Below the pieces are notes generated by a model. It did no database searches and was not told the origin of the DNA. It worked only from the letters and a program-made list of their open reading frames with translations. This document shows, in pieces, positions 13,924 through 64,000 of a stretch of 64,000 nt of DNA. The position numbers and the translations under genes are program-made. The number at the start of each line of letters is the position of its first letter. The stretch's first letter is position 1. Source of the stretch: an uncultured Clostridia bacterium (GTDB taxonomy: Bacteria; Acidobacteriota; Aminicenantia; UBA2199); the NCBI GenBank assembly GCA_964502145.1, contig CAZCVI010000002.1, positions 117,383 through 181,382 of the forward strand, written 5' to 3'.

Positions 13924-13950
13924 CTCCTCTAAAGAGCTGAAAAAACTACC

Positions 13951-29257: not shown

Positions 29258-29356
29258 AGAACTATTTCTGAAAACACTGAATTTTATTAAAATAAGCTTG
29301 TAAGATTTTTAAATATTTTATATGATATCAGGGTAAATAATGAATTGGAGGTTGTT

Positions 29357-30561: not shown

Positions 30562-31173
30562 TTAGATGACACCTGCCTTTTTGAGGTATGCGATGACGGT
30601 TTCCACTTCTTGGTCAATGGTGTGGGTATCGGCGTCAAGTATGATCTCGGCGCGTAATGGTTCTTCGTAAGGGGCGGAAATACCGGTAAACTCTTTGATC
30701 TCGCCATTCTTGGCTTTTTTATACAGTCCTTTGGGGTCTCGTTGTTCGCAGGTATCTATGGACGCTTTGACATAAATTTCGATAAAGCGACCAGCCCCGA
30801 GGAGTTCTCTGCCAAAATCGCGGTCTTTGCGATAAGGGGAAATAAAGGCGGTGGTGGTAATGACGCCCGCATCGGCGAACAGGTTACCTACTTCTGCAAT
30901 ACGACGGATATTCTCTTCGCGATCAGCGGGGGAAAAACCGAGGTTCTTGTTGAGACCGTGACGGATATTGTCGCCATCCAGTACATAGGTTAATTTACCG
31001 ATTTGATGCAGCCGGGCAGTCACCTCGTTGGCAATAGTGGATTTGCCACTGGCGGAAAGTCCGGTAAACCATAATAATACGCCTTTTTGTTTGAGAAGGG
31101 CTTCACGCTCTTCACGACTTACTTTGTGCTCGTGCCAAGTGATGTGGGTGGCTTTCTGAAAATTGCTATTCAT
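30562..31173 (-). CDS. cysC: Adenylylsulfate (APS) kinase
   Basis: [18 protein letters not shown] (P-loop) and overall 203-aa CysC pattern. GGAGG 13 nt upstream. Confidence 0.85.
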
Positions 31174-31358: not shown

Positions 31359-32006
31359 TTATTCTAGAGAGGGGGATTTGACTTTGAGAGAGAGGGTGTT
31401 TTTCTGGTCGATCATCATTAATTCGAGGTTTAGAACTTTGGCAATATAATGGAAGGTTTTGGGGGTGAAGAAGGAGATGTGGGTGGCATCGCGGCGATAC
31501 CACCACTGGAAGAATTGTGCAGCCACGGGAGTTTGCAGGGGATGGAATAGGGTCATAATGGCCAATATGCCACCGGGATTGAGCAATTCTTTTAATAAGG
31601 TGAGTGTCTCAAAGGGATTTTTGAGATGTTCCAGTACCTCGGTACAGGTGATGAGATCATAGGTGTGCCCAAAATATATTTTTTCCGGGGCAAAGTAGGG
31701 GTCATAGACGTGTACGTCGTATCCTCTTTTTTTTAAGAGTGAGGCCAACACAGGGCCAGGACCGCTACCGAAATCAAGGGCGGTTTGGATGTGGGGGTGG
31801 AAAGGGTGAATGCTTTTTGCTATGAACTGTTCTAACATGGACACGTATCCACATTCTTCGACAGTATTTATATGTTGGAGATATCTTTGCCGTTCTTGTT
31901 CGGGAGGAAGTATTTTTGACTCTGCAATGGCAATAAAATAGCACTTGGGGCAGAAATAGTAATAAAGGATAGGGCACAACGGCCCGGCACAAATTTTACA
32001 GCCCAT
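31359..32006 (-). CDS. Class I SAM-dependent methyltransferase with an N-terminal Cys-rich (zinc-ribbon-like) segment
   Basis: Motif I LDFGSGPGPVLASLL and motif post-I DVHVYDP are present. N-terminal CKICAGPLC...CPKC. Confidence 0.6.
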   Translation of the reverse strand: MGCKICAGPLCPILYYYFCPKCYFIAIAESKILPPEQERQRYLQHINTVEECGYVSMLEQFIAKSIHPFHPHIQTALDFGSGPGPVLASLLKKRGYDVHVYDPYFAPEKIYFGHTYDLITCTEVLEHLKNPFETLTLLKELLNPGGILAIMTLFHPLQTPVAAQFFQWWYRRDATHISFFTPKTFHYIAKVLNLELMMIDQKNTLSLKVKSPSLE

Positions 32007-53000: not shown

Positions 53001-56000
53001 TATCAGGCCGTTGGATCGCACCTATGCTGGCGATCTGTTGGCCTTTGAAATTGATCGTGCAGAGACTTCGGCGTTAAATCATTTCGCCAGTCAGCAGGGG
53101 GTCACATTGTACATGGTGTTGCTCTGCTTAACCACTATCCTTTTAGCCAAGTTAAGTGGTCAGGAAACCGTGGTCGTAGGAACTCCCATTGCCGGTCGTA
53201 CCCATGCGGACCTGGGCCGGATTATCGGCATGTTTGTCAATACCCTGGCCATGAAGAATGAACCCAATGGCCAAAAAACTATCCAGGAATTTTTAAAGGA
53301 AGTCAAAGAAAACACCTTGAGTGCTTTTGCCAACCAGAACTACCAGTATGAAGAACTGGTCGAGCACCTGCCCATAGATCGCAGTCTAGGCCATAACCCC
53401 TTGTTTGACACCCTGTTGGTCTTGCAAAACATGGCTCTGCCCAATATCAATATTCCCGAATTGACCTTAACACCCTATCCGTATCATACCGGTTTGGTAA
53501 ATTTTGATTTGACTTTCCTGTGTGTTGAAACCCCAGCTACCCTCTCGTTCACCCTTGAATACAGTACAGAACTCTTTAAAAAAGAAACCGCCCAACGCTT
53601 TATCGGTTTTTTCAAAAAGATATTAACCACCGTATTGGCGCACCCCGAAGGAAAAATATCCCAGATCGAGATAATATCCCAGCCAGAAAAAACCCAGATT
53701 TTATATGATTTCAACAACACCACCGTTACATACCCGGCCAACCAAACCCTTCCCCAATTATTTTCCGACCAAGCCGCACGAACCCCAGACCATATCGCCA
53801 TTATTGGTCCCACCCTGGCTCTAACCCACTGCCAATTAACCTACTCCCAATTAAACGAAGCATCCAATCGCCTCGCCCATTGGTTACTTTCCACTGGCGT
53901 CCGTCCCAATACCATCGTCGCCATCATGATCGAACGTTCCATTGAATTGATCATCGGCATTATCGGCATATTAGAATCCGGTGCCGCCTATCTTCCCATC
54001 GATCCCCAATACCCCGAGGAGCGAAAACAATATATACTAGCAGACAGCAATACAACCCTCATCCTAACCCAACACTCCATCCAACAAGCCATTCCCATCA
54101 CTCCCATCACTCCCAACACTCCCATAATTCCCATACTTCCCATCACTCCCATAAATCTCGCCTATATCATCTACACTTCCGGTTCCACCGGCAGACCCAA
54201 GGGCGTCATGGTAGACCATCACAGCATCGCCAACACCTTGTATTACCGCTGCCAGGAATATCGTATCGTGCCCAGTGATCGTGTACTCCAATTGTTTTCC
54301 TTTGCTTTTGATGGATTTCTCACCTCTTGTTTTACCCCCCTGCTTTCTGGCGCATCTGTCGTGCAGTTAAGCCAGGAGGACATAAAAGATATCTTCCGTA
54401 TCAAAGAGATGATTGTCGCCCAACGAATCACCCACTTTATCGCTGTCCCGTCCCTGTACCGCTCTTTATTGGAAGTCGCCACTGCCCTTGAGTTATCCCA
54501 CCTAAAAATCGTAACCCTTGCCGGTGAGCAGGTGCCCCCCGACCTCGTGGTAAAAAGTAAGTCTTTAAACCCCTTGTTGGAATTGGTCAATGAGTACGGT
54601 CCCACCGAGAGCAGTGTCCTGACCTCCATACACAGAAACCTCGAACCCGGTGCCATTATTTCCATCGGTAAACCCATAGCCAATACCCGGATTTATATTC
54701 TTGATCAAGATGATCATGTTGCCCCCATCGGGTTACCCGGTCAACTCGTTATATCTGGTCTTGGTTTGGCCCGCGGGTATCTCAATAATCCCCAACTCAC
54801 CGCCGCTACATTTTTCTCTTTAGCCCATTCAGCCACCTTCGCCACCCTCTCACCAAAACTCTATAAGAGCGGTGATTTGGCCCGCTGGTTGCCAGATGGA
54901 AACATAGAGTTCCTCGGTCGCATTGATCAGCAGGTTAAAATCCGTGGCTTCCGTATTGAATTGGGCGAGATCGAAAACCAACTGCTTCGCCATCCCCAGA
55001 TCAAAGAGGCAGTAGTGGATGTTAGAACCGAAAACAGCGGCGATCACTATTTATGCGCTTATATTGTCACCCAGGGCGAATGGGACATCTCCCAGGCAAG
55101 AGAATATCTGGCCAAGACCTTACCCGATTACATGATTCCCGCGCATTTTGTCGCCTTGGAGAAAATCCCCTTGTCCCCCACTGGCAAGATTCTACGTTCA
55201 GCCTTACCCCAACCGCAATTAAAAAGCGCGGCCCAGTACGTGCCCCCCCGCAATGACATAGAACAACAATTGGTAGAGATATGGACCGAGATTTTGGGCA
55301 GTGATCCATTGTTTGCCTCTTTTTTACATCCCTCTATAGGCATTGATGATAACTTTTTCCATCTCGGTGGGCACTCCTTAAAAGCCATGACCATGGTCAC
55401 CAAGCTCCATAAAGCCCTAAATGTTAAAGTGCCCTTGGTGGAAGTCTTTAAAACCTTGACCATCAGGAAACTGGCCGCCTATATTTTAGGTTTAAAAAAA
55501 GAGTTATACACCGCCATCCAACCCGCTGAAACCAGAGAGTATTATGACTTATCCTCTGCCCAGCGCCGGTTTTATATCTTGCAGCAAATGGAGCTGGACA
55601 GTTTTGCCTACAACAATTTTTCCGTCATGGTTTTGGACGGATTATTTGATAAAGAGAAATTTGGCCACGCGTTAAACCAATTGATCGCCAGACATGACAG
55701 TTTAAGAACCTCTTTTGAATTAATCGGAGGTGAACCTTTCCAAAAGATACATCAACAAGTAGTCGCGGAAATCGCTTATTTTGATTTCACCCCTCCCGGA
55801 AAAAGTCAGCTCTTAGAATCCACCATCCAACATTTTAACCGTCCTTTTGATTTATCTCATGCCCCCTTGCTCAGGTTCGGCATTATTCTCGTGGAGCAGC
55901 AAAAATCCTTGTTGCTGTTAAGCCTCCACCATATCATCAGTGACGGCACATCCATCGGCACCTTTATGAACGAGTTAATTTATTTATACCTGGGCCGAGA

Positions 56001-56889
56001 ACTCCCACCCCTGCGATTGCAATATCACGATTTCTCCCAGTGGCAAAAAAACCTCCTGGTTTCCGGGGCATTAAAGACCCAGGAAGAATACTGGTTAAAA
56101 GTTTTTGCCGGGGAACTGCCCGTTCTTGAAATGCCCACCGATTACCCCAGACCAGCCGTGCAAAGTTTTGCCGGTCACAGTATCGATTTCTTTCTGGAGG
56201 AAGATGTCGCCCGGCAGTTGGAAACCCTGGTGAAAGAAACTGGCACCACGTTATATATTTTGTTATTGGCCCTGTACAGTATCTTGTTAAGCAAATTTAC
56301 CGGGCAGAAAGACATCATCATCGGCTCTCCTATTGCCGGGCGCAACCACGCTGATTTAGAAGGGCTGATCGGGTTATTCATTGAGACCATCGTGATCCGC
56401 TGTTTTCCCCTCGGAGATAAACCCTTTTTGGAATTCTTGGCAGAGGTGAAAAGCAATACCTTTAATGCCTATGAGAACCAGGGTTATCCCTTCGGGGAAT
56501 TATTAAAGCACGTGGGCACCCAGCAGTGGGATGGCAGTCGGAACCCCTTGTTTGATGCCATGTTAATTGTTCAGAATGTCACCCAGGATTTTAAAGTGAT
56601 GTTATTGGAAGATGTAAAGATCAGCCCTTATGTGGCCAGTGACCACCGGGTCTCTAAAATGGATATTACCCTGGAGGTCATCGAAGCCCCCGGCAGAATT
56701 CATTGTAACCTGGAATACTGTACCGCGCTATTCACACACGAGACCATGGCAGCCTTTATCGCTTCTTTTCAGAAAATCGTGGCCATTGTTTTAGAAAATA
56801 ATAACATAAGATTGCAAGACATCCAATTGTCCCATGAATTAAAAGGTGCCACCGCCTCTATTTACGATGACGCCGAAATAGAGTTTTAA
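38071..56889 (+). CDS. Hybrid NRPS/PKS megasynthase (6272 aa): C1-A1-T1-C2-A2(interrupted by rSAM+B12-binding insert)-T2-C3-A3-T3-KS-AT-T4-C4-A4-T5-C5(terminal)
   Basis: C-domain HHxxxDG motifs at about 41731, 46487, 52783 and 55927 (HHIIYDG in C1). A-domain A3 motifs YTSGTTGKPKG and TSGSTG(K/R)PKG are present. T-domain motifs are GGHSLK, GGNSMN and GGDSLK. KS motifs are NTACSTSL, HGTGT and NFGHLG. AT motifs are FPGLGAQ and GYSFGEY. Confidence 0.95.
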   Translation: MSQLERKKIADILMLTHLQEGILFHYLQEPKSAQYFEQLSLEISGEINLELFKTAWHTVIQTNEMLRTVFRWEKMEKPTQIILKEHTCDITFYDLTDEATNRQKSRLQEIKDKDKQTPFDLQEVPMRIMLCKLGTHDYEMIISNHHIIYDGWSNGIILKEFFRAYYGLSAGKPALLPDKPSFKEFIKWLQNEDKYEKDKQKAFWRDYLAGLDGQTELPLKNIKNRKNTGSKQVEHYSLVLEPELKERLEAFAKTKRFTLAGVFYTVWGLLLHQYCNSQDVLFGTTVAGRSARIKGIEEMVGLFINTIPLRIQTTPGEKMVAVVSGVDHALQARELFENTPLLDIRNYSGLSGYVSLFDTLVVIENYPLDSRLLPEESGLSVHAFTIAEMTHYDLTVGIVLFNEIAVTFSYNPELFAQEMIAHLAGHFLSLVQMIIENGEQDICAIEIISPEEKHRVLYEFNNTAAEYPSNKTIPQLFMEQSARTPDYIALIWEKSGACHISYAELNELSNRLAYWLQTEGIRPDTIVAIMVNRSIEMIVGLMGILKAGAAYLPINPEYPAERIQFMLQDSTAKIVLTEPIIQATTSHIPIPPIIPIIPIPPITPSNLAYVIYTSGTTGKPKGVLVEHQNAVNVVCWLGRKYQLNPDTHIILMSDYTFDASIDQIFGALLHGASLYIASKEFMLDMDALRHYINKNRINFINFVPLVLNELLGYREKLPSLNTVISGAERLDDTIKDNILKRGYHLYNHYGPTETTVETLVFTCTDAPVYLGKPIANTKIYILDQWEHIVPIGVPGELYIAGAGLARGYLNRSDLTAEKFVATPHGVENDPVSRTYRTGDLGCWLPDGNIAFLGRIDQQVKIRGFRVELGEIEAQLRTFPEIKQVVVSAKEDNRGDKTLCAYIVSRQLSTGPTAPLDPAVLTTYLAGILPDYMIPAYYVQLAEIPLLPNGKVDRKNLPEPVFIATQAYQEPRHELDRRLQTIWTSVLFGNVLSEDSSAPPPKPIGIDDNFFHMGGHSLKIMNMAAKIHKELNLEIPVQELFTHPTIRVLANYINTREHTKNITKNNFAEIAAIEVKEYYPLSSAQKRVYILYLMETDSINYNMHEVFRLEGELDVGRLEKSFTQLIRRHESLRTSFFLLHDEPVQKIVAASDVPFASEFFDPNEKDTLVEPALNDTALMENTTVYDINQRFLRPFDLTQAPLFRVGLIKIAKNSHILMAGMHHIISDGISIDLFITDFVALYRGQNLPPLPIQYKEYAHWQHQKKAQGAFNSQRSYWLHEFAGELPVLTMPYDFPRPAVQSFAGDKYYFNLPAYETKTLIKRCQEEAVTLFMMLSAIYYVMLWKLSGAEEIVVGSPTAGRRHADLESILGMFVNTLAVKTSPAKETRFKPFLAQVKQKNLAAFENQEYQFDDLVEELLPARDLGRNPLFDMMFILQNMTGTTNTAINIPGLKITRLPFETHIAPFDFYLMAEERQESIYFTVGYCTKLFTLETVRRFMGYYREILATVVTQPEVELARIDILSPAEKRQLVQEFNNTQRPYPQGQTIPQWFAEQAARTPEAIAVVGEGVITYRELNQRANQLAHLLRQKGVAPDTIVALFMFRSIQMVVGILGILKAGGAYLPINPVYPGQRVLSILEDSGGNYFISDEKTSRPLSFTGLQRLDVPEVTPLVTAKRPQITNFDSLPHPDRTLIDYSKYHRYIGIAPAKYTVSIQATRGCPYQCAYCHKIWPKTHVMRRAEDIFAEISACYQAGVKRFVFIDDVFNLNKKNSGQLFQTLIDHHYDVQLFFPNGLRGDILTPDFIDLMIEAGTVNIDLALETASPRLQKLINKQLNLEKFAANVHYITQKHPHVVLEMEMMIGFPTETEAEALQTLELLQSFKWVHFPNLNILKIYPNTDMAQLAIENGVSRKLIHSSTTLAFHELPETLPFSKDFVREYQARFTNQYFLSQERLRHVLKQQVKSFTADELVQKYDSYLPVEIKSFADILKCADISSAALGPIEFIPEARFAAPDFNQRIKAFFPSRPSSENAFRLLFLDLSQSFRADMGHTLYDVGAEPLGLMYLASYLQEQLGPHVRVKVLKSRIDFDSYAQLQEQITLFQPHLIGLRTLSLYKDFFHRTVSLLRQWGITAPIIAGGPYATSDYKQMLQDPHIHLAVLGEGEATTLHLVKEMMTKNNTWPADDVLETIPGLAFIRQSERMLTTAPQRQVLLLDQISGPLAHFPTTNPQNVNHPGDLLYLISTSGSTGKPKSVMVEHRTLVNLLHFQFHHTAIHFSRVLQFAAIGFDVSVQEIFSALLAGGTLYLPDEDMKSDVPRLFQFIQQNQIEILFLPPAFLNFVFSDPDYIPLFPDCVRHIIAAGEQLIVNEALRLFLKQRHVYLHNHYGPSETHVVTTLTMDPTQEIPHFPGIGSPVSNTGIYILDSQSNLLPLGVSGELNIGGIQVGRGYLGNVALTAEKFVPNPFVPGDRLYRTGDMARWWSNGSIQFLGRLDFQIKIRGFRIEPGEIEGQLKKHPDIKETIVLALADNKGELYLVAYVVLQPQTTMPLLREFLLNRLPDYMVPAHFIPLARIPLNASGKVDRHALPPPENTPGNGHVAPRDPMEKKLAAIWCTVLGKDVAQDTVSIDDNFFQMGGHSLKATALTSRLAKEFHVKVPLVEIFKEPTIRGLSGYIAHSMVEQYAGITPVEEQEYYPLSSAQKRLHFLQQMDKAGTTYHLTSNWLLEGVVAKNHLEQSLLKLLQRHESLRTSFDIIAEEPVQIIHPKLAFVIEDEHATMDSFLRPFALSHAPLLRVGLVKIAAEKFLLLVDMHHIISDGLSMDILSREFTALLAGVELPPLRLQYKDYAAWQSSEKESPHFRQQELFWQQEFSGAIPVLDLPVDYSRPPVQSFAGASLPFALSRDSVVSLQAIAVEASATMYMVLLTCYTIFLAKMSNQEDIVIGTPIAGRRHADLEKIIGMFVNTLVLRNYPVAEKKFSDFLAEVKERTLKAFENQEYPYEDLVDKVTITRDVCRNPLFDTMFVLQNATPPPVDIPGLKIAPVPQENKTAKFDLTLTAVETPEKIELNFEYCTKLFKKESIHRFITYFTNIIDSVLADPFIVLGQIPLLSPAQREQLLVEINAPAIRYPNFKTIQGLFAEQVKKTPDRPALTGIRYDQAETHLTYRQLDQLSRQLAHQLTGRGLGPNKRAAIMVGRNVEMIIAILGIIQAGAAYVPLDPQAPVERLHYVLADCGAELLLTFRPLAARLAPAIDTLYLEEFTTLPATPPDAVLSGHPDDLAYIIYTSGSTGRPKGVPICHRNVSPLLFWGYRYLGICRLDRVIQSPSYYFDWSVWEIFITLTSGAHLVMISEELVLDPPALVEFIRQHAITTLHITPTQLSYLVNSRRPMLSLHHLCIGAEKLTYDLVARALPLLATDCRIYNMYGPTEATIISAVAEIDREQIPFYLKLPSIPIGHTIANTTLFVLDHSMNPCPIHVVGELYIAGDALARGYLNDPEKTVASFVTNPFAEICGPYLYKTGDRVRRLEDGSILFLGRADDQVKIRGYRIELGEIENWLLHYPHVKDALVLVKADHLQEKYLCAYVACPIELDTAELRDFLAARLPAYMIPAHFITLEHMPLNPNGKVDKKRLPLPEMQTSPQVVAPKNDLEKTILSIWQDVLGLDHVGTTDNYFERGGNSMNIVKVSHRLKSVLNRDIPVMDLFRYPTIKTLAAYLNQSPGHVPFTPSEIGESLLLNQPEIPRHESVSTTPAIAVIGMAGRLPGANTISAFWNNLKHGVESIAFFSPAEFADNGGDPRSVNLPNYVKTRCDLQDIQYFDSSFFGYTPVEAEIIDPQMRLFHECVWEAFEDAGYESGSYAGRIGLYSGGESSSFWETLTSLSQIGQLMNPLILGNLNNKDYLSSRIAYKFNLRGPSVTMNTACSTSLVAIHFAVQGLLNRECEIALAGGVRVMLPGKTGYLYQEGMIQSPDGHCRAFDARANGTVGGDGVGVVVLKTLARAQVDGDHIYAVIKGSAINNDGIGKVGYHAPSINGQAAAIRAACANAAIDPGSIGYIETHGTGTQLGDTVEIEALKLVFNALVLPQHKNTCAIGSVKTNFGHLGSAAGVAGFIKTVLTLKHRLIPPSLHFERPNPKIDFENSPFYVNTQLTPWPSTLLPARASVSSFGIGGTNAHIILEAVAPTSPAFPASARPDQLLLLSARTPAALHTMSVNLLEYLKENPVLSLADVAYTLQVGRKRMAIRRKLVCSTSAQVIDQLAASGPAHVGAYTALVADEDRKVIFMFPGLGAQHVNMGRGLYHTEPIFRDVMDRCFAILKDLYPVDIKEILYPAGEISPASNSQFHSFEVEQLVLFVFEYALARLILSWGIQPHAMIGYSFGEYVAACLAGVFRLQDILKLLVVRGRLISQLPAGAMLSVPLPVEAVQPFLPAELSIAIDNRSSCVVSGPAQAVASFAQQMKAKKLLCPPFESPFAAHSSQLDPILAEFHKEVATISLQTPQIPYISTCTGTWITVADAQSPEYWVKQLRSTVYFVRGIHQIIEGVSPVFLEMGPGRDMSALVNREITAKTGIQTMNLLRHRGSLKERTDEDYLLDKIGRLWLYGVNIDWQAYHSGQRRSRLSLPTYPFEKKRAWKIMENYHAGQYSYLPGAPGAPESSHPAQGTPLAETPGDHWTQEPPHLEWNARPQLSTSYVAPRDEVQQVLLDIWQHFFGIQEIGITDDFFELGGDSLKATTLLSTLHKEANILVPLTYFFDNPTIEKIAAYAITSENDADPGEKEFHAIQLLEQKEYYPLSSAQKRMTFFQQLDQTSIGYNLVLANTIQGNLDTLKLAAIFTKLSARHEILRTSIEEIQGETVQRIHPHIAATLITGHGESPEVFIAQFIRPFDLARAPLMRVGLLSMAEQQYLLIVDMHHIISDGTSLAVLIGEFLALYQEKELPVLLLQYKDYAVWQNQEMAGGLFVSQRDYWIKTFAGEVPVLELPYDCIRPLDRTYAGDLLAFEIDRAETSALNHFASQQGVTLYMVLLCLTTILLAKLSGQETVVVGTPIAGRTHADLGRIIGMFVNTLAMKNEPNGQKTIQEFLKEVKENTLSAFANQNYQYEELVEHLPIDRSLGHNPLFDTLLVLQNMALPNINIPELTLTPYPYHTGLVNFDLTFLCVETPATLSFTLEYSTELFKKETAQRFIGFFKKILTTVLAHPEGKISQIEIISQPEKTQILYDFNNTTVTYPANQTLPQLFSDQAARTPDHIAIIGPTLALTHCQLTYSQLNEASNRLAHWLLSTGVRPNTIVAIMIERSIELIIGIIGILESGAAYLPIDPQYPEERKQYILADSNTTLILTQHSIQQAIPITPITPNTPIIPILPITPINLAYIIYTSGSTGRPKGVMVDHHSIANTLYYRCQEYRIVPSDRVLQLFSFAFDGFLTSCFTPLLSGASVVQLSQEDIKDIFRIKEMIVAQRITHFIAVPSLYRSLLEVATALELSHLKIVTLAGEQVPPDLVVKSKSLNPLLELVNEYGPTESSVLTSIHRNLEPGAIISIGKPIANTRIYILDQDDHVAPIGLPGQLVISGLGLARGYLNNPQLTAATFFSLAHSATFATLSPKLYKSGDLARWLPDGNIEFLGRIDQQVKIRGFRIELGEIENQLLRHPQIKEAVVDVRTENSGDHYLCAYIVTQGEWDISQAREYLAKTLPDYMIPAHFVALEKIPLSPTGKILRSALPQPQLKSAAQYVPPRNDIEQQLVEIWTEILGSDPLFASFLHPSIGIDDNFFHLGGHSLKAMTMVTKLHKALNVKVPLVEVFKTLTIRKLAAYILGLKKELYTAIQPAETREYYDLSSAQRRFYILQQMELDSFAYNNFSVMVLDGLFDKEKFGHALNQLIARHDSLRTSFELIGGEPFQKIHQQVVAEIAYFDFTPPGKSQLLESTIQHFNRPFDLSHAPLLRFGIILVEQQKSLLLLSLHHIISDGTSIGTFMNELIYLYLGRELPPLRLQYHDFSQWQKNLLVSGALKTQEEYWLKVFAGELPVLEMPTDYPRPAVQSFAGHSIDFFLEEDVARQLETLVKETGTTLYILLLALYSILLSKFTGQKDIIIGSPIAGRNHADLEGLIGLFIETIVIRCFPLGDKPFLEFLAEVKSNTFNAYENQGYPFGELLKHVGTQQWDGSRNPLFDAMLIVQNVTQDFKVMLLEDVKISPYVASDHRVSKMDITLEVIEAPGRIHCNLEYCTALFTHETMAAFIASFQKIVAIVLENNNIRLQDIQLSHELKGATASIYDDAEIEF
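39823..39885 (-). repeat. Seven in-frame copies of the NNTCCCATN nonamer (reverse complement WATGGGARN) inside A1 between core motifs A2 and A3, encoding TSHIPIPPIIPIIPIPPITPS
   Basis: Read directly. The unit is identical to the intergenic array at 29204-29257 in opposite orientation. Confidence 0.85.
42990..44760 (+). other. About 590-aa insert in adenylation domain A2, between core motifs A2 and A3: radical SAM core (ATRGCPYQCAYC) followed by a cobalamin-binding-like Rossmann domain (IIAGGPYAT...VLGEGE)
   Basis: A2 motif LKAGGAYLPINP at ~42.93 kb and A3 motif LISTSGSTGKPK at ~44.79 kb. The Cys triad codons are at 43222-43245. The LPHPDRTLIDYSKY linker is typical of B12-rSAM enzymes. GEGE at 44542-44553. 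Confidence 0.75.
49290..52260 (+). other. Embedded PKS module KS-AT-T (no KR/DH/ER) within the NRPS; the AT has non-canonical GYSFGEY and FAAHS motifs
   Basis: KS has TPAIAVIGMAGRLPG, NTACSTSL, HGTGTQLGD and NFGHLGSAAG. AT has FMFPGLGAQ and GYSFGEY (51172-51192). Carrier domain has FFELGGDSLK. Confidence 0.8.
54091..54153 (-). repeat. Seven in-frame copies of the NNTCCCATN nonamer inside A4 between core motifs A2 and A3, encoding IPITPITPNTPIIPILPITPI
   Basis: Read directly. Same repeat family as 39823-39885 and 29204-29257. Confidence 0.85.
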
Positions 56890-56891
56890 CA

Positions 56892-59800
56892 ATGTCTAAA
56901 GGAAAAGAAACCATGAGAAAACAAACCAATGCCCCCTCCAAACTAGCTTTTGTTTTTCCCGGAATTGGTTCTTTATGGAAACAAATGGGCCTTCGCTTAT
57001 TACAAGAAGACGTTTTTCGCACGACGATCCAGGAATGCGATGAGGCCTTTCGTTTGAATCCCTCAGTCGCTTGGTCAATTGTAGAAGAGATCAACGCCCC
57101 GGTAGCGCTTTCAAGAATCGAAGATATCTGTATCGGTTATCCCTGCGGCTTGGCTATTGAGATAGCCTTAACCGCCTTATTAAAAAGCCGTGGTATCCTC
57201 CCCCATGCTGTAATCGGTCACAGTGGTGGCGAAATTCCCGCGGCTTATGCCGCAGGCATTCTGAATTTACCCGATGCCTTTCGCGCTATCTGGGGTCACT
57301 ATATGGAAATGAGCAAAAGAAACAACGCGGTCAACATGGCCTATATCGGCTTGCCCGTAACCAAAGTGGCGCAAACCATACAACTCCACCACGCCCAATC
57401 CCGCATATTCATCGCCGCTGTAAACAGTCCTAAATCCACCATCATCTCCGGTCACACAGACGCCATTAAACCCCTGCTGGAATCTCTCGCCAAAGAAAAA
57501 GTATTTTGCCGCATCTTGGACACCCTGGGCGCGTTTCATTCTCCGATCATGGAAGAGAATAGAACGGAAATTTATACCCGCTTAAAAGACATCCAAGCCA
57601 AAGAAGCCACCATCCCCTTTTACTCCTCCCTGTTAGGCAAATTGGGACACGATAATCTTGCGCTACCCTTGTACTGCACCAATCTGATGATACAACCCGT
57701 GTTGTTTGCCGATGGCATTCAAGCCCTGATTAAAGATGGCTATACCACCTTTTTAGAGATCAGCCCCCATCCCGTTCTTTCCAGAAATATCCAGGAAATA
57801 CTCGAAGCATGCAACCTAGAGAACGCACAGGTTCTGCCAACCTTAAAACGCGATGAGGACGACAAAAGAATGTTCGCAGAATGTCTCGACCATCTTGCCA
57901 CAGCCCACCCCGCATCACACACTTTCTTTTCGTCCCCGCCACCCACCATTGACCCCGCCCAAAAGAAAGCCTTTATCGTAACAACAATCACCCAATCCAT
58001 CCAGGACCTTTTAAAATGCCCCCCTGTTTCCCCTGTGGATGTCTACCTCGGTTTTTTTGATATGGGCTTTGATAGCATGAAAGCATTACAATTTAAAGAT
58101 ATATTATCCCAACGACTCGGTTTATCTCTCCCCGTGACCTTGATCTTTGATTATCCTGATATTCATTCCCTGAGCCACTATTTACTCTCCAGATTTACCC
58201 TATCAACCCCTGCCACAGAGGACAATAACCCGCTCCTTGAAACCAGTACAGAACCCATCGCCATCGTTGGCATGGCGTGTCGTTTTCCTGGTGGTGCCAA
58301 TACCCTCGATACCTTCTGGGACCTATTAAAAAACGGGCGGGATACCGTAAGCGATATCCCCGAGGAGCGTTGGAATGGTCAGATGTATTATTCTCCAGAG
58401 ATCACACCCGGAAAAACCAACACCCACCGGGGAAATTTTATTTCTGGTATTGATATCACCACCTTTGACGCCAATTTTTTCAAGATTTCACCCAAGGAAG
58501 CCAGAGCATTGGACCCCCAGCATCGGCTTCTTTTAGAAGTAACTGTTGAAGCTTTGGAAAATGCCGCCATTCCGCTGTTAAGTATCAGAGATAAACAAGT
58601 CGGCGTGTTTATCGGCATATGTTCCGATGATTATAAATTAGCCCACCTCCATGCCGCCGATTTAACCCACATGGATGCATACGCCGCCTCTGGTTCCATG
58701 CTTGGACCCGCCGCGGGCAGGATATCTTATTTCCTTGGGCTCAGAGGACCATCCCTGTCCGTTGATACCGCGTGCTCTTCTGCCCTGACCGCCCTTCATT
58801 ATGCAGTGTTATCGCTCCGCCACCGTGAATGTGAGACCGTCATCACCGGTGGCGTAAACTGTTTGTTATCCCCTAATATGTTCGTGTATTTGAGCCAGCT
58901 CAATACCTTGTCCCAAGATGGGACATGTAAAACCTTTGATGAAAAAGCCGATGGTTTTGGTAGGGGAGAAGGGTGTGGCGTTTTAGTATTAAAGCGCTTG
59001 TCCGATGCCCGGCGCGACAACGATAATATCTGGGCCATTATCCAGGGTTCCGCCGTGAACCACGATGGCGCCAGTGCCGGTTTCACCGCTCCCAATGGCG
59101 TCGCCCAGCAAGAAGTGATCCAAAAAGCCCTGTTAGATGCCCGTGTTTCCCCTGCCAGTGTCGATTATATTGAAACCCATGGAGCAGGCACGCCACTGGG
59201 CGACCCCATCGAAATACAAGCTATAGCGGAAGTATACGGTAAAAATCGGGCCCAAGATGTGCCCCTTCTCGTGGGCGCTGTAAAAACAAATATCGGACAC
59301 TTGGAAGCTGCCGCTGGCGTAGCTGGAATGATCAAAACCATCCTCTCCTTACATCACCACATCATCCCCCCTCACCTCCATGTCTCCCACCCCAACCCCC
59401 AGATCAACTGGGAACAGATCCCGGTAAAAATAAATACCGGTTTAACCCCCTGGTTCCCCCGTGAGCAACCCAGGCGTGCCGCCATCAGCGGTTTTGGCTT
59501 CAGCGGAACCAATGCCCACGTGATTATTCAAGAACCACCCCTTTGGGCAGATGAAACCAACACCACATCAGACCCATATCCCGTTCATATGTTGAATTTA
59601 TCCGCCAAAACCCCCCGTGCCTTAAACGAATTGGCCCGGTTATACACGGACTATCTTTCCAATCCATCTTTGCCTGATTTAGGCGATATATGTTATACTG
59701 CTGCCACCGGTCGTTCTCATTTTTCTTTTAGATATTCCGCCGTGGGCAAAGATGTTTCTGAAATCAAGCATAAGCTCGAATACTTCCTGGCCAATCAAAC

Positions 59801-62800
59801 CAATCATTCCACTGTCACCCAAGATAAAAACGAGCTGAATAAAAAAATCGCTTTCCTTTTCACCGGGCAGGGGTCGCAGTATGTTGGCATGGGCAAAGAG
59901 TTATACCATGCCGAACCCATATTTAAAGCCGCCTTAACCACCTGCGACCAACTCTTCCAAAAAGTACTGGACCTATCCATCATCGAATTATTGTATGCCC
60001 CCCTATCTACCGATGAGATCGTCGCCCAAGCCATTCATGCCCAACCCATTATTTTTGCCATCCAATATGCCCTGGTCAAACTCTGGCAATCCTGGGGCAT
60101 AGAACCCGCCCTGGTTATCGGACACAGCATCGGCGAATATGCCGCCGCGTGTACCGCTGGCGTTTTTAGCTTGGAAGATGCCGTCAAACTCGTGGCCATC
60201 CGGGGTCGATTAATGCAATCCGTCAGCCAATCCGGGCGCATGGCCGGTATTCTAACCTCCGAGGAAAACGCCCGCGCCTTTATCGCCCCCTATCAAAACG
60301 ACGTGTCCATCGCTGCTGTTAATGCCCCTGAAAATGTCACCATCTCCGGTAGCCTAGAATCCATAAACAACGTGTTGGCCCATGTTAAACAGGCAAAAAT
60401 TTTTATCGAACAACTTCCTATTTCCCATGCCTTTCATTCCGTGCTCATGGAACCCTATGTAGAGTCATTCAGTCGCGAAATCGCTGGAATTGTGTTCTCC
60501 CCCCCACAATTACCTTTCATTTCAACCGTTACCGGTTTACCCGCCCACCAAGAAATAACCCAGCCCCAGTATTGGGCGCAGCATTTTTGCCGTACCGTGC
60601 GCTATTATGACAGTATCACCTTGGCTCACACCCAGGGCGTCCAAATTTTTCTCGAAATCGGCGGCACTGCCACCCTAACAGGGCTCGCCGCCCAGTGTTT
60701 GCCCGCCACAAATGCCCTTTTTATTCCTTCCTTGCGAAAAGGAAAGTCTGCCTGCCAACAACTATTAACCAGTCTCTCCCAATTGTATACCCACGGCATA
60801 AATATCCAGTGGCAAAAATTTTATCACCCCTTTCAGTATAAAAAAGTAATCCTTCCCAACACCCCTTTTTTGCGTGAAAGGTTCTGGATGGATAACCTTC
60901 TTCCAGTCTTACCCACCCAGAAAAATGAATTAGTACAACCTATACCAGAGGAAATCGTGATCGAGGACACTAATAATATGGAAAATACAGCACACATTCT
61001 TATTGAAATAAAAGAGATGGTTCATACTATTTCCGGTTTGCGCCCCGAAGCGCTTGATGATGATTCCGAATTGTTTGCCATGGGACTCGATTCATTGATG
61101 ATGACCGAGTTACGGCGCAAAATAACCGGCCAGTATGGCATAGATATTTCTCTGAATGAATTTTTCATGGAATTAACCACCCTGCACAAAATAGCCCGAC
61201 ATCTCCAGCATAAGTTCCACCCCCTGGCAAAGAAAACGGCAGTCACCCCCCAGTTTATAGATACAATGACTATTCCAGCCCCGCAGGCAGGTGAAACCAT
61301 GCCTGTTTCCACCATGGAACGTATCCTGACGCAACAAATGGAGGCCATGAAAGAGCACTCTTTACGGATCTCCGATTTAGCGTTAAAACAATTGGAAGCC
61401 CTAAAGAATCTGCAGGTTCCCGTTCCTCCAGTTCCCCCCGTGGTCGCTCCTACTGTTGTAGCCGAACCTATCACCAAACCCCTTCACTTTTCCGCTACCG
61501 CCGATCTGCGCCAGCGCGGTTTGACCCTGCGGCAGCAGGAGCACTTGGATAGACTTATACAGCGTTATACCGCGCGCACCCATTCCTCCAAAGAACAGAC
61601 CCGCCACGACCGCGACGTCCTCGCCGATAGTAAAGGGACAGTCGGGTTTAATCTTGCCACCAAGGAAATGTTGTACCCCCTCATTGGCAAGTCTGCCAAA
61701 GGCTCCCGTATCTGGGATATTGATGGTAATGAATACGTCGACATCACCATGGGCTTTGGCGTCTATCTGTTTGGTCATCATCCCGAATTTCTCAAGAAAG
61801 CCTTCCGTGAACATCACGAAGATGCACCCGAATTAGGCCCCCGTTCCCCCTGGGTGGGCAAGGCCGCTGCTTTAATTGCGCAATTCACCCGTTTGGAACG
61901 TGTCGCTTTTGCCAATACCGGCACTGAAGCTGTCATGACCGCTATTCGTCTCGCCCGTGCCGCGACCGGACGCACCAAAATCGCCATGTTTTCCCGTTCT
62001 TACCACGGCCATTCCGATGGCACCCTGGCTGTCTCCACCATACGTAACGGTCAACTTTTTTCCGAACCCGTTTCACCCGGAATTCCCCATAGTGTTGTCC
62101 AGGAAACGATTGTTTTGGATTACCTCGAACCCCACGCCCTGGAGATTATCCGCCAACAGGGGCCCCAACTGGCTGCCGTGCTGGTTGAACCCGTGCAAAG
62201 CCGGTATCCCGATGTCAACCCCGCCCCATTTCTCCACGAATTAAGACGTATCACCCGGGAAACAGGTTGCCTGTTGATATTTGATGAAATGATTACCGGG
62301 TTCCGTATTCATCCTGGTGGCGCCCAGGCGTATTTTAATGTTGAGGCCGATATCTGTGTCTATGGAAAAATTATCGGTGGCGGTTTACCTATCGGTGTCA
62401 TTGCCGGGAAAGCCCACTATATGGATCACATCGACGGCGGTACCTGGGACTATGGCGATACCTCGTACCCTGCCGTGGAAAGAACCTTTTTCGGCGGCAC
62501 ATTCTGCCAGTACCACCAGGCCATGTTGGCCGCTACTACGGTTTTAGAATACCTCCAAGACCAGGGCCCCCAATTGCAACACCAATTGAATCTCAAAACA
62601 AAACAATTGGCCGATACACTCAATACTTATTTTGAAGAAAACAATATCACCATCCGTGTGCTTTATTTTGGTTCCATTTTCCGTTTCGAAATCCAGGGTG
62701 GTCTCGATTTATTTTACTTTCATATGTTGGAAAAAGGCGTGTACATCTGGGAGTGGCGTAATTGTTTCCTTTCTACCGCCCATACCCAGGAAGACCTGGA

Positions 62801-64000
62801 TCATATTTTTCGCGCCGTCAAAGAGACCGTGACCGAACTGGAACAAGGCGGTTTTTCCCTCCATAGCGGGCACTCCGCCACCTCCCAATCACATTCCGGG
62901 GACTACTATCCCATGTCCTCCGTGCAAAAACGATTGTTTGTGTTGAGTCAATCCCAGGAAGGGGACCGCGCCTACCATGTGCCTATTGCCGTGCAAATCG
63001 AGGGCCCAGTAAATATTGAAAAATTCCAGGCCATTTTCAAAGAGTTATTCCTGCGCCACGAGATATTTCGTACTGGCTTGGAAATAAAAGAGGAGCAGTG
63101 GGTGCAACATGTTTATCCAGTCGATGAAGTGGCATTTTCTATCCGTCATGTTAACATTAAAGAAACCGATATCAATACATTATTGGCAGAGCTGTTACGT
63201 CCCTTTGATCTATCCAAGCCCCCATTGTTACGTGCCACCATGGGTGAAATTTCTCCCACTCGCTTCGTATTCATTTTAAATTTCCATCACACCGTGATCG
63301 ATGGCGCTTCATTTACCCTCTTTATGCAAGACTTTTTCAATCTTTATAACCACCATCCGCTTCCCCCCGTCAAGATGCAGTATAAAGAATACACCCAGTG
63401 GGAACAACAGTACCTAAAGTCACCCGATTTTAAAGCCCAGGAGGAATATTGGTTGCACCAATTGGGCGGTGAACTCCCCCTGCTGGAATTACCCACCGAT
63501 TTTCCCAGGCCGCCCATTTTAGACTTTGAAGGCGATGTCTTCCGCTTTAAAATCCAGATTGATAAAGTCGACAGGGTGAAAGCACTGGCCAAAAAAACGG
63601 GTTCCAGTTTGAACATGCTGCTACTGGCTATATATAATGTACTCCTCTTTAAATTGACCCAGCAAGAAGACATGCTCGTGGGCATCCCCGCCAGTGTCAT
63701 CTGGAATGAGCAATTCGAGCGCACCGTCGGCATGTGTACCAATACCCTCGTCATCCGCAATTGTCCCGCCGGGAATAAACCCTTCACCCGCTTTTTAAAA
63801 GAAGTGAAAACCAATTGTTTACAAGCCTACTCCCACCAGGAATACCCCTATGAAGAATTGGTCAGTAAATTCCCAGGCAAACGAGATATTAGTCACAACC
63901 CGTTTGTGGATGTGATGTTTGTCTATGAAAACGGTAACAGTCGCTTATATGATCTGGCTGATCTGACCGTTACCCCCCGTGATATCAACGTGGGCGCCTC
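56892..64000 (+). CDS. Second megasynthase (partial; the 3' end lies outside the window): AT(loading, GHSGG)-ACP-KS-AT(GHSIGEY/HAFHS, malonyl-type)-ACP-PLP aminotransferase (class III, GSA-aminomutase-like)-C...
   Basis: Starts 2 nt after the stop of the first gene (alternative ATG at 56913 with an AGGAA-like SD). KS motifs DTACSSAL and HGAGTPLGD. Aminotransferase lysine motif YGKIIGGGLPIG at ~62363. C domain FHHTVIDGASF at ~63285 continues to the window end. Confidence 0.9.
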   Translation, partial: MSKGKETMRKQTNAPSKLAFVFPGIGSLWKQMGLRLLQEDVFRTTIQECDEAFRLNPSVAWSIVEEINAPVALSRIEDICIGYPCGLAIEIALTALLKSRGILPHAVIGHSGGEIPAAYAAGILNLPDAFRAIWGHYMEMSKRNNAVNMAYIGLPVTKVAQTIQLHHAQSRIFIAAVNSPKSTIISGHTDAIKPLLESLAKEKVFCRILDTLGAFHSPIMEENRTEIYTRLKDIQAKEATIPFYSSLLGKLGHDNLALPLYCTNLMIQPVLFADGIQALIKDGYTTFLEISPHPVLSRNIQEILEACNLENAQVLPTLKRDEDDKRMFAECLDHLATAHPASHTFFSSPPPTIDPAQKKAFIVTTITQSIQDLLKCPPVSPVDVYLGFFDMGFDSMKALQFKDILSQRLGLSLPVTLIFDYPDIHSLSHYLLSRFTLSTPATEDNNPLLETSTEPIAIVGMACRFPGGANTLDTFWDLLKNGRDTVSDIPEERWNGQMYYSPEITPGKTNTHRGNFISGIDITTFDANFFKISPKEARALDPQHRLLLEVTVEALENAAIPLLSIRDKQVGVFIGICSDDYKLAHLHAADLTHMDAYAASGSMLGPAAGRISYFLGLRGPSLSVDTACSSALTALHYAVLSLRHRECETVITGGVNCLLSPNMFVYLSQLNTLSQDGTCKTFDEKADGFGRGEGCGVLVLKRLSDARRDNDNIWAIIQGSAVNHDGASAGFTAPNGVAQQEVIQKALLDARVSPASVDYIETHGAGTPLGDPIEIQAIAEVYGKNRAQDVPLLVGAVKTNIGHLEAAAGVAGMIKTILSLHHHIIPPHLHVSHPNPQINWEQIPVKINTGLTPWFPREQPRRAAISGFGFSGTNAHVIIQEPPLWADETNTTSDPYPVHMLNLSAKTPRALNELARLYTDYLSNPSLPDLGDICYTAATGRSHFSFRYSAVGKDVSEIKHKLEYFLANQTNHSTVTQDKNELNKKIAFLFTGQGSQYVGMGKELYHAEPIFKAALTTCDQLFQKVLDLSIIELLYAPLSTDEIVAQAIHAQPIIFAIQYALVKLWQSWGIEPALVIGHSIGEYAAACTAGVFSLEDAVKLVAIRGRLMQSVSQSGRMAGILTSEENARAFIAPYQNDVSIAAVNAPENVTISGSLESINNVLAHVKQAKIFIEQLPISHAFHSVLMEPYVESFSREIAGIVFSPPQLPFISTVTGLPAHQEITQPQYWAQHFCRTVRYYDSITLAHTQGVQIFLEIGGTATLTGLAAQCLPATNALFIPSLRKGKSACQQLLTSLSQLYTHGINIQWQKFYHPFQYKKVILPNTPFLRERFWMDNLLPVLPTQKNELVQPIPEEIVIEDTNNMENTAHILIEIKEMVHTISGLRPEALDDDSELFAMGLDSLMMTELRRKITGQYGIDISLNEFFMELTTLHKIARHLQHKFHPLAKKTAVTPQFIDTMTIPAPQAGETMPVSTMERILTQQMEAMKEHSLRISDLALKQLEALKNLQVPVPPVPPVVAPTVVAEPITKPLHFSATADLRQRGLTLRQQEHLDRLIQRYTARTHSSKEQTRHDRDVLADSKGTVGFNLATKEMLYPLIGKSAKGSRIWDIDGNEYVDITMGFGVYLFGHHPEFLKKAFREHHEDAPELGPRSPWVGKAAALIAQFTRLERVAFANTGTEAVMTAIRLARAATGRTKIAMFSRSYHGHSDGTLAVSTIRNGQLFSEPVSPGIPHSVVQETIVLDYLEPHALEIIRQQGPQLAAVLVEPVQSRYPDVNPAPFLHELRRITRETGCLLIFDEMITGFRIHPGGAQAYFNVEADICVYGKIIGGGLPIGVIAGKAHYMDHIDGGTWDYGDTSYPAVERTFFGGTFCQYHQAMLAATTVLEYLQDQGPQLQHQLNLKTKQLADTLNTYFEENNITIRVLYFGSIFRFEIQGGLDLFYFHMLEKGVYIWEWRNCFLSTAHTQEDLDHIFRAVKETVTELEQGGFSLHSGHSATSQSHSGDYYPMSSVQKRLFVLSQSQEGDRAYHVPIAVQIEGPVNIEKFQAIFKELFLRHEIFRTGLEIKEEQWVQHVYPVDEVAFSIRHVNIKETDINTLLAELLRPFDLSKPPLLRATMGEISPTRFVFILNFHHTVIDGASFTLFMQDFFNLYNHHPLPPVKMQYKEYTQWEQQYLKSPDFKAQEEYWLHQLGGELPLLELPTDFPRPPILDFEGDVFRFKIQIDKVDRVKALAKKTGSSLNMLLLAIYNVLLFKLTQQEDMLVGIPASVIWNEQFERTVGMCTNTLVIRNCPAGNKPFTRFLKEVKTNCLQAYSHQEYPYEELVSKFPGKRDISHNPFVDVMFVYENGNSRLYDLADLTVTPRDINVGA
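61560..62860 (+). other. Integrated PLP-dependent aminotransferase (AMT) domain, MycA/McyE-type, after KS-AT-ACP
   Basis: IWDIDGNEYVDITMGFGVYLFGH, FDEMITGFR and GKIIGGGLP (PLP Lys) match glutamate-1-semialdehyde aminomutase-type class III aminotransferases found in beta-amino-acid-forming PKS modules. Confidence 0.75.

Follow-up and report, generated by a model that had tools for sequence, protein, structure and literature searches.

Two adjoining megasynthase genes and their junction

A 64,000-nucleotide stretch of DNA from an uncultured Clostridia bacterium (GTDB lineage Bacteria; Acidobacteriota; Aminicenantia; UBA2199), positions 117,383 to 181,382 of contig CAZCVI010000002.1 in assembly GCA_964502145.1 and hereafter called the window, carries two adjoining genes of a hybrid nonribosomal peptide synthetase–polyketide synthase (NRPS-PKS), referred to here as gene 1 and gene 2. 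Gene 1, as read from the window sequence, is a single open reading frame (ORF) of 18.8 kb (38071-56889, plus strand, 6272 aa), and its domain order, obtained by motif scan, Pfam and a map based on hidden Markov models (HMMs), is C1-A1-T1-C2-A2(B12-rSAM insert)-T2-C3-A3-T3-KS-AT-ACP-C4-A4-T4-C5 (C, condensation; A, adenylation; T, peptidyl carrier; KS, ketosynthase; AT, acyltransferase; ACP, acyl carrier protein; rSAM, radical S-adenosylmethionine). Gene 2 begins with an ATG at 56892 and reads AT0-ACP0-KS-AT1-ACP1-AMT-C6 (AMT, amine transferase), where C6 is cut by the window end. The HMMs were built from the window's own domains, and the resulting map agrees with the motif scans and Pfam for both genes. 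The Pfam E-values of the domains listed below range from 1e-27 to 0, and the reported domain features are far beyond chance; in gene 2 the catalytic motifs are all intact, from AT0 through C6. Gene 1 heads its operon, with only unrelated opposite-strand genes upstream (a HEAT-repeat protein and an S46 peptidase). The features of gene 1 and of the junction that matter for what follows are:

38086..39405, plus strand: C1, N-terminal condensation domain of gene 1, DCL-type, with an N-terminus (MSQLERKKIADILMLTHLQEGILFH) like that of acceptors in communication-mediating (COM) pairs and an intact HHIIYDG
50887-51810, plus strand: AT of the gene 1 KS-AT-ACP module, with GYSFG and AAHS replacing GHSxG and HAFH, Arg117 kept
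55255..55479, plus strand: T4, last peptidyl carrier of gene 1 and donor carrier for C5, GGHSL at aa 5766, PP-binding Pfam match, also on the HMM map
55528..56823, plus strand: C5, C-terminal condensation domain of gene 1, LCL-type, HHIISDG at 55927-55947, Pfam Condensation
56824..56886, plus strand: tail after C5, 21 aa (QLSHELKGATASIYDDAEIEF), matching a C-A linker cut where the A domain would begin
56887..56894, plus strand: gene junction read from the sequence, gene 1 TAA (56887-56889), a 2-nt spacer, then the gene 2 ATG in another frame

A first-pass annotation, made from the letters alone, had described gene 1 as ending in a C domain without a thioesterase (TE) and gene 2 as starting 2 nt later with AT-ACP, followed by KS-AT-ACP, AMT and C. 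Both descriptions hold: gene 1 closes with T4-C5, the 21-aa tail and TAA, with no TE after C5, and the order in gene 2 is recovered by sequence, motifs, Pfam and the HMM map alike. A fusion of the two genes by read-through or frameshift was considered and rejected, as the frames differ and the spacers of orthologues reach 283 nt.

The nearest solved chain to C5 is the PCP-C didomain of TycC (2jgp, E 7e-112), and with its HHxxxDG intact and its closest relatives among characterised LCL domains, C5 is classed as an LCL elongation domain. Among the compared genome loci (L numbers), it is 60.6% identical to the C domain preceding the AT-first gene of L086, ~50% identical to the stand-alone junction C proteins described below, and its identity to terminal junction C domains across relatives, stand-alone ones included, is 46-61%, with no divergence from them. 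These features would fit a carrier-tethered acceptor better than a role in release.

The other end of gene 1 looks different from what had been proposed. C1, called C-starter-like in the first-pass annotation, proved to have as its best solved relatives the N-terminal DCL-type C domains of TycB1, SrfA-C and McyB (E 1e-74 to 1e-81; 252-277 bits), against 39 bits for the starter C of CDA; its sequence affinity is thus DCL and not that of starter (lipo-initiation) C domains. From Met1 onward, the first 25 residues of gene 1 (38071-38145; MSQLERKKIADILMLTHLQEGILFH) can be aligned with the N-termini of SrfA-C (MSQFSKDQVQDMYYLSPMQEGMLFH) and TycB, both of COM-acceptor type, which implies an E-ended donor subunit lying outside the window. 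TycB, SrfA-C and McyB each take their chain from a preceding subunit ending in an epimerization (E) domain. Gene 1 is alike at its N-terminus to such COM junctions (TycA to TycB, SrfA-B to SrfA-C), but no E-ended donor subunit was seen with a purpose-built E-domain HMM in the window or in the visible parts of close relatives; the sole exception is a more distant relative, L001, where an E-ended subunit follows the AMT-type subunit. Since gene 1 opens its operon yet starts with a DCL/COM-acceptor-like C domain, some non-collinearity is needed under any reading, and to that extent the non-collinear logic suggested earlier is supported. Gene 1 probably needs a donor subunit (E- or T-ended) or an acyl carrier that is encoded out of order, outside the window. 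The donor may be D-peptidyl, L-peptidyl or acyl; an acyl carrier could serve because the C domain of PvdL, believed to take a fatty-acyl-S-T donor, also scores well against C1 (241 bits).

Two further traits of gene 1 can be recorded here. Its second A domain is interrupted by a B12-binding radical SAM insert of ~600 aa (42991-44790, aa ~1641-2240; CPYQCAYC; Pfam PF04055 and PF02310), placed between the adenylation core motifs A2 (LKAGGAYLPINP) and A3 (LISTSGSTGKPKS). Among relatives, L006 has rSAM inside an A domain, L001 and L144 have rSAM genes right after C domains with a C-terminal tail, in L085 they lie ahead of the first NRPS gene, and L026 carries rSAM at another place in its cluster. 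The KS-AT-ACP module of gene 1 has no ketoreductase (KR), so that the beta-keto group would be kept unless reduced in trans, and its AT variant (GYSFG/AAHS) recurs in p3 of L141, likewise after a hybrid-type KS.

The acyltransferase loader and beta-amino block of gene 2

The domains of gene 2 up to the window end are as follows:

56943..57863, plus strand: AT0, putative starter-loading acyltransferase, GHSGG, Ser/His dyad, Gln11 replaced by Ile and Arg117 by His, Pfam Acyl_transf_1
57966..58178, plus strand: ACP0, predicted loading carrier, GFDSM, by motif, Pfam and HMM map
58248..59540, plus strand: KS1 of gene 2, DTACSS, HGAGT and NIGH, predicted active
59847..60782, plus strand: AT1, malonyl-type extender acyltransferase, GQGSQ, GHSIG, Arg117, HAFH
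60987..61199, plus strand: ACP1, predicted carrier of the beta-keto and then the beta-amino acyl intermediate, GLDSL
61572..62861, plus strand: AMT, predicted MycA-type amine transferase dependent on pyridoxal phosphate (PLP), YGKIIGGGLP at 62361-62387, Pfam PF00202 Aminotran_3, E 8.8e-50
62889..64000 (window end), plus strand: C6, condensation domain after AMT, HHTVIDG at 63285-63305, by Pfam

The nearest solved chains to AT0 are the ATs of DEBS, with the loading AT of AVES also among the matches. The Ser/His dyad is kept in all eight aligned AT0 sequences (the window and seven orthologues); in these eight the first Gln of GQGSQ is Ile, Phe or Leu wherever that N-terminal stretch aligns, and the position of Arg117 is His or Ile. 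This substitution pattern is common to the cluster-initial PKS loaders of L091, L092 and L097 (actinomycete loaders carry Trp at 117), and every AT that follows a KS in the compared loci keeps GQGxQ, Arg117 and HAFH or HPFH. Since Arg117 binds the malonyl carboxylate, AT0, which lacks it, should load a non-carboxylated acyl group. The Ser of ACP0 is invariant in the alignment (FDMGFDS region), and the D before it is Asn in L087. As in loading AT-ACP units of PKSs, an N-terminal AT with Ser/His and without Arg117 is followed by an ACP with its Ser and by a Cys-active KS of the starter-accepting type. Judged by these motifs, AT0-ACP0 is a genuine starter-loading didomain, as the first-pass annotation had it, with Arg117 and Gln11 lost in AT0 and kept in the extender ATs. 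The likeness to the loaders of DEBS and avermectin extends to the N-terminal place, the Ser/His dyad, the loss of Arg117 and the ACP and Cys-type KS that follow; those loaders, however, open an assembly line, whereas AT0 sits behind another megasynthase and its module continues into AMT and NRPS domains. In a HMMER search with AT0-ACP0 multi-AT PKSs dominate the ranking, and the few true orthologues (P0132, P0225, P0011 and P0008) all have AT0 at the N-terminus.

KS1 falls, in a neighbour-joining tree without support values, with KS domains that follow fatty-acyl-AMP ligase (FAAL)-ACP, AT-ACP or PKS modules (the fatty-acyl/polyketide-starter clade), and the KS of gene 1 with the hybrid KS domains found behind C-A-T. 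The two placements bear on a fully collinear reading in which AT-ACP would replace an A-T pair: AT0 would load a unit carrying an amine or hydroxyl, C5 would condense the gene 1 chain onto it at ACP0, KS1 would extend the whole, and the AMT-made amine would stay free for later. The position of AT-ACP behind a C domain, analogous to that of A-T, speaks for this reading, as does an AT0 that does not bind a malonyl-type substrate, and aminoacyl-transferring ATs do exist in macrolactam pathways (e.g. VinK). We nevertheless consider it very improbable, as KS1 belongs to the starter clade and not to the hybrid aminoacyl/peptidyl one, AT0 looks like an ordinary cluster-initial loader (cf. L091, L092 and L097), the AMT-less relative L090 has no upstream C domain, which this reading would still require, and no genes for an aminoacyl-CoA or aminoacyl-ACP substrate were seen near the cluster.

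No KR is present between AT1 and ACP1, and the AMT aligns end to end with the solved AMT of MycA (6kfm/6kfu, E 1.8e-153), the Lys motif YGKIIGGG being conserved. With a class-III aminotransferase fold and PLP Lys placed after KS-AT-ACP without KR and before C, the domain has the setting of a MycA-type AMT module and is assigned by similarity as a MycA-type amine transferase; the MycA/McyE-type order read into KS-AT-ACP-AMT-C from the start is upheld by the same match. In the characterised example, MycA, the AMT aminates the beta-carbon of a beta-ketoacyl chain tethered to the ACP (PMC3870968). MycA of the mycosubtilin/iturin systems (AL-ACP-KS-AT-ACP-AMT-C-A-T-C) has the same KS-AT-ACP-AMT-C order without KR as gene 2. 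The two differ in the loader (a fatty-acyl-AMP ligase and ACP in MycA, the AT-ACP didomain in gene 2, where no AMP-binding match precedes C6), and in that gene 2 is not first in its operon but lies 2 nt behind a C-ended subunit; the cluster end is outside the window. Gene 2, which lacks the defining FAAL loader and stands second in its operon, is not an iturin-family subunit A in the strict sense. In iturins, moreover, the beta-amine is free until TE macrolactamisation, whereas that of gene 2 is probably acylated by C5.

The microcystin synthetase offers a second comparison. McyE reads KS-AT-ACP-(CM)-AMT-C-A-T-C and ends in a C domain acting on the A-T of the next subunit, McyA, and the order of the mcy genes is non-collinear. 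The McyE block, a C-ended subunit and the non-collinear order all resemble the window genes, and the N-terminal C domain of McyB is among the best solved matches to C1. On the other hand, McyE lacks the loading didomain that gene 2 has; its KS takes the chain from McyD, and the Adda amine is reserved for the final TE cyclisation.

Metagenomes and metagenome-assembled genomes labelled Acidobacteriota, 'bacterium' or Ca. Aminicenantes supplied the closest orthologues of gene 2 (52-61% identity); the best match in a GTDB species genome has 46% identity on AMT-C, and the best in the protein collection 58%, whereas exact 50-mers scanned against metagenome contigs gave no match. Full-length orthologues (P0001-P0004, ~3350-3550 aa) read AT-ACP-KS-AT-ACP-AMT-C-A-T-C followed by a tail ending in FEF, sometimes with one further A-T-C. 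Since they end in A-T-C, the missing part of gene 2 is most likely A-T-C as well. One of them, P0002, is labelled 'iturin family lipopeptide synthetase A' by one source, though without the defining FAAL. Across 80 genome loci with an AMT-C pair, what precedes KS-AT-ACP-AMT is usually a FAAL-like A domain with an ACP, or an NRPS module; four actinomycete loci among them (L035, L041, L042 and L048) have AT-ACP-KS-AT-ACP-AMT-C-A-T as their first gene. The C domains that follow an AMT form one clade in the C-domain phylogeny. The family is an uncharacterised hybrid NRPS-PKS in a lineage without a characterised product: in the literature searched, which covered part of the field, we found no described product or mechanism for it and no paper on NRPS/PKS products of Aminicenantes-type bacteria.

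Conservation of the junction and the proposed acceptor of C5

In the window, as in eight of the nine AMT-containing relatives for which upstream sequence is available (L081/L089, L082, L083, L085, L086, L087, L088 and L141, with L140 as the exception), the AT0 gene comes directly after a C domain with its tail. The spacer between the two is 2 nt in the window, 9 nt in L082 and 19 nt in L141. The modules before the junction C domain vary (A-T-C-A-T-C-A-T-C, half-C-A-T-C or KS-AT-KR-ACP-C), and both AMT-less relatives (L090 and L139) have no C domain upstream; in L139 the AT0 gene is the first of its cluster, behind a DNA polymerase III alpha gene.

A gene 1 that ends in a C domain, treated earlier as an oddity, turned out to be ordinary in its family. 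The subunits of close relatives habitually end after an intact C domain with a conserved tail (..SHDLxxxxSDxYxxxxxxFEF), and this FEF tail is found on terminal C domains at junctions with AT, with half-C-A and with A (L081-L088, L141, L142 and L144). The subunit that comes after such an end starts with an A domain, a half-C, an rSAM-bearing protein or AT0. A terminal C domain is thus the norm here and no anomaly. The half-C lacks HHxxxD and comprises just the C-terminal lobe of a condensation domain; its identity is 37-53% between loci but only ~23-30% to full C domains, and it forms the N-termini of subunits at the following places:

L081, 5593-6360, 20643-21490 and 25112-25840: half-C N-termini
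L083, 15120-15840: half-C N-terminus
L141, 16413-17190: half-C N-terminus
L142, 7214-7960: half-C N-terminus

A chimeric query joining C5-tail to AT0 gave no match covering both halves, and no fused C-AT0 protein was found. The same query revealed stand-alone C proteins of ~497 aa that begin with a helix (MELAERIAKMSPEQRKLLELKLKQQG) and carry the FEF tail. One of these, in L142, lies between a T-ended subunit (C-terminus ...ESEEIIL) and a half-C-A subunit. The stand-alone C proteins share their helix (M-x-LA-x-RI-x-K-L/M-SP-x-QRKLLELKLK) with the C-first subunit of L090, and T-ended subunits terminate in ...E-S/E-D/E-E-I-I-L, which resembles a docking partner of it. In L090 the subunit upstream of the AT0 gene ends in T with a ...SDEIIL tail, matching the N-terminal helix (MNLAQRISKLSPQQRKLLELKLKEK) of the subunit after the AT0 gene. 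The sites concerned are:

L142, 5130-6623: stand-alone C protein with the docking helix
L144, 4666-6255: stand-alone C protein with the docking helix
L090, 18982-19110 and 9900-9979: docking helix and tail

Three architectural details of relatives belong to the same subunit grammar. A subunit of L141 (16389-23666, aa 885-1786) has two complete C domains one behind the other, an LCL type and then a starter-like one (HPLSHPQKRIYYTERKYPDTS, recalling the starter C of SrfA-A), which hints at two acylations at one module. In L086 (1447-16756) the AT-first protein ends directly after AMT and the next ORF opens with a second ACP-AMT, then C-A-T, which is either a real duplication or an assembly artefact. 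For the double-C junction of L090, the idea that two chains are grafted onto one di-nucleophilic residue was weakened, the first four specificity residues of the A domain being DILQ, read by eye as glycine-like.

Taking domain order and junction together, we tentatively favour, at somewhat less than even probability, a convergent assembly line in which C5 N-acylates the ACP-bound beta-amino acid made by gene 2. In such a line AT0 would load a non-carboxylated acyl starter onto ACP0, KS1, AT1 and ACP1 would add one malonate unit to give a beta-ketoacyl-ACP1, and the MycA-type AMT would turn the ketone into an amine. C5, with the T4-bound product of gene 1 as its donor, would then N-acylate the beta-aminoacyl thioester on ACP1, and C6 would hand the merged chain to the A-T beyond the window. 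The AT-ACP-KS-AT-ACP-AMT block would thereby occupy the place of the A-T pair after a C domain, with the beta-amino monomer made in situ. What the sequences show are the domain identities, the intact motifs, the loader nature of AT0, the MycA type of the AMT and the conserved junction of C and its tail with AT0; which group C5 acylates, in what order the steps run and which starter is loaded are what we infer.

Several observations are consistent with this acceptor. If AT0 loads a plain acyl group and KS1 belongs to the acyl-starter clade, the AMT-made amine would be the sole nucleophile on the front half of gene 2. Acylation of the ACP1 beta-amine by C5 would explain why the junction between C and AT0 is conserved despite swapped upstream modules, and likewise the short spacers, the lack of an upstream C domain when AMT is absent and the canonical nature of C5. 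NRPS C domains can accept beta-amino acyl-S-T substrates. Elsewhere in the family, C domains with the tail precede their acceptor genes (half-C-A-T, A-T or an rSAM-bearing protein), which we count in favour of the convergent line. Of the two options raised in the first-pass annotation, action of C5 on the beta-aminoacyl-ACP or gene 2 as the true start, the comparative data appear to lean towards the former. The more general proposal, that the mini-PKS (AT-ACP-KS-AT-ACP-AMT) replaces the A-T of an NRPS module, has its monomer N-acylated by the preceding C domain and lets independently initiated chains merge mid-line, is a little more doubtful still.

A number of points weigh on the other side. 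An upstream C domain is the default of the family, where nearly all subunits end in C with the tail, and the correlation of AMT with an upstream C has only the two AMT-less loci as its control. The C domains before AT0 are not monophyletic and are 46-65% identical to conventional junction C domains; a specialised subtype could not be claimed for them, as they form no clade in the C-domain phylogeny. In L140 the AMT-type AT0 gene is first in its cluster, after non-NRPS genes, with no C domain upstream. In L084 the AT0 gene is last, its own C and tail having no downstream partner. The L087 cluster begins with the subunit that precedes AT0, although this subunit has an active hybrid-type KS at its N-terminus. 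The docking motifs of L090 link the subunits that flank the AT0 gene, so that adjacency is not always functional. In the window itself, because C1 is acceptor-like and gene 1 comes first in the operon, gene 1 would need a donor encoded out of order, and the convergent line would have to possess a second initiation module. Absence of a fused C-AT0 protein likewise counts here, as does the absence of a precedent: in the literature searched, no C domain is described as acylating a beta-aminoacyl-ACP made in line by a PKS.

Part of this evidence fits better with a single line that is merely rotated, in which gene 2 would be the sole initiator (iturin-like, with an AT loader in place of the FAAL), the chain would pass through gene 2 and the downstream subunits and re-enter at C1 from an E-ended subunit, and C5, as the last domain, would close a macrolactam on the beta-amine. 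AT0-ACP0 looks like a bona fide loader, and the AT0 gene stands first in its cluster in both L139 and L140. C1 aligns from Met1 with SrfA-C, TycB and McyB, all fed by E-ended subunits, and such a subunit does follow the AMT-type one in the distant L001. The KS-first upstream subunit of L087 cannot initiate, a single initiation module suffices, and this reading accounts just as well for the correlation between AMT and upstream C. No TE is present in any visible part of the AMT-type clusters, though all of these are only partly visible, which limits what its absence can say. Terminal releasing C domains (the fungal C_T type and bacterial amidating or cyclising ones) likewise come last, as C5 does with no TE in view. 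C5, however, keeps its canonical HHxxxDG and the FEF tail of its relatives and is 46-61% identical to junction C domains, so that nothing marks it as a specialised releasing domain, and in relatives ordinary acceptor subunits follow ends of this kind. Moreover, the last subunit would have to be encoded right before the first in eight of nine relatives despite swapped modules, an adjacency without functional reason. On balance we regard ring closure by C5 as rather unlikely. It shares with the convergent line the amide between the gene 1 thioester and the AMT-made amine, and for that shared bond, taken over both readings, the case is fairly good.

The remaining account, likewise of low probability in our judgement, makes the junction an ordinary one displaced by gene order. 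C5 would have as its acceptor a conventional subunit, A-T or half-C-A-T, encoded outside the window; gene 2 would be an initiation subunit or a separate line that happens to adjoin gene 1, with a terminal TE using the beta-amine as in iturin and microcystin. The sequence of C5 is that of an ordinary LCL domain, and with all family subunits ending in C and the tail it is not special. The AT0 gene of L090 sits between subunits with mutually matching docking motifs, and elsewhere it moves from last (L084) to first (L140). TE-containing C-A-T-TE proteins exist among homologues of the NRPS family (P0305 and P0329, the latter annotated Ca. Aminicenantes), and the non-collinear mcy cluster, with McyE ending in C, is a precedent. 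Against this stand the adjacency of C with its tail and AT0 in eight of nine AMT-type relatives with differing upstream modules, its absence from both AMT-less ones, and the very short spacers (2 nt here), which suggest co-expression of partners. The first-pass annotation had named an ordinary LCL C5 with its partner A domain encoded elsewhere as the result that would speak against its proposal: the LCL part proved correct (2jgp, E 7e-112), and the partner elsewhere is the rather improbable account just given.

Neighbouring genes and implications for the family

Further genes of the window were noted alongside the cluster. The stretch 12079-16215 encodes, in this order, a B12-binding radical SAM protein (614 aa) and a fused winged helix-turn-helix/ThiF-like/YcaO protein (754 aa), with a 165-aa ORF behind them; this set looks like a modification pair of the type acting on ribosomally synthesised and post-translationally modified peptides, separate from the NRPS-PKS cluster. 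A 1758-aa signalling protein at 17061-22337 combines a Ser/Thr kinase, a STAND/AAA ATPase, GAF and a PP2C (SpoIIE) phosphatase. Between 27814 and 32006, on mixed strands and 6-10 kb upstream of gene 1, lie a radical SAM/SPASM protein, a short-chain dehydrogenase/reductase (29345-30148), an adenosine 5'-phosphosulfate kinase (30562-31173) and a SAM methyltransferase (31359-32006).

If C5 does acylate an ACP-bound, PKS-made beta-amine, the module would be of a type new to the literature searched, a C domain paired with a self-contained monomer factory, and two chains would merge inside a single line. The rules for predicting the products of hybrid clusters would then be widened, and the junction would offer engineers a natural template for inserting a beta-amino acid in mid-peptide. 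The wider family would then look like a set of tools with which uncultured Acidobacteriota/Aminicenantes-type bacteria branch and merge chains: C-cut subunits, FEF tails, N-terminal half-C domains, docking C proteins that stand alone, C-C junctions in tandem and A domains with a B12-rSAM interruption. If, on the other hand, the line is merely rotated, the cluster would make a lipopeptide in the manner of iturin, loaded by an AT and perhaps closed by a C domain, which would be useful for genome mining and unsurprising. Either way, this family is odd in its architecture, with its N-terminal half-C domains, docking C proteins encoded on their own and A domains interrupted by rSAM, and it belongs to a lineage without a characterised product.

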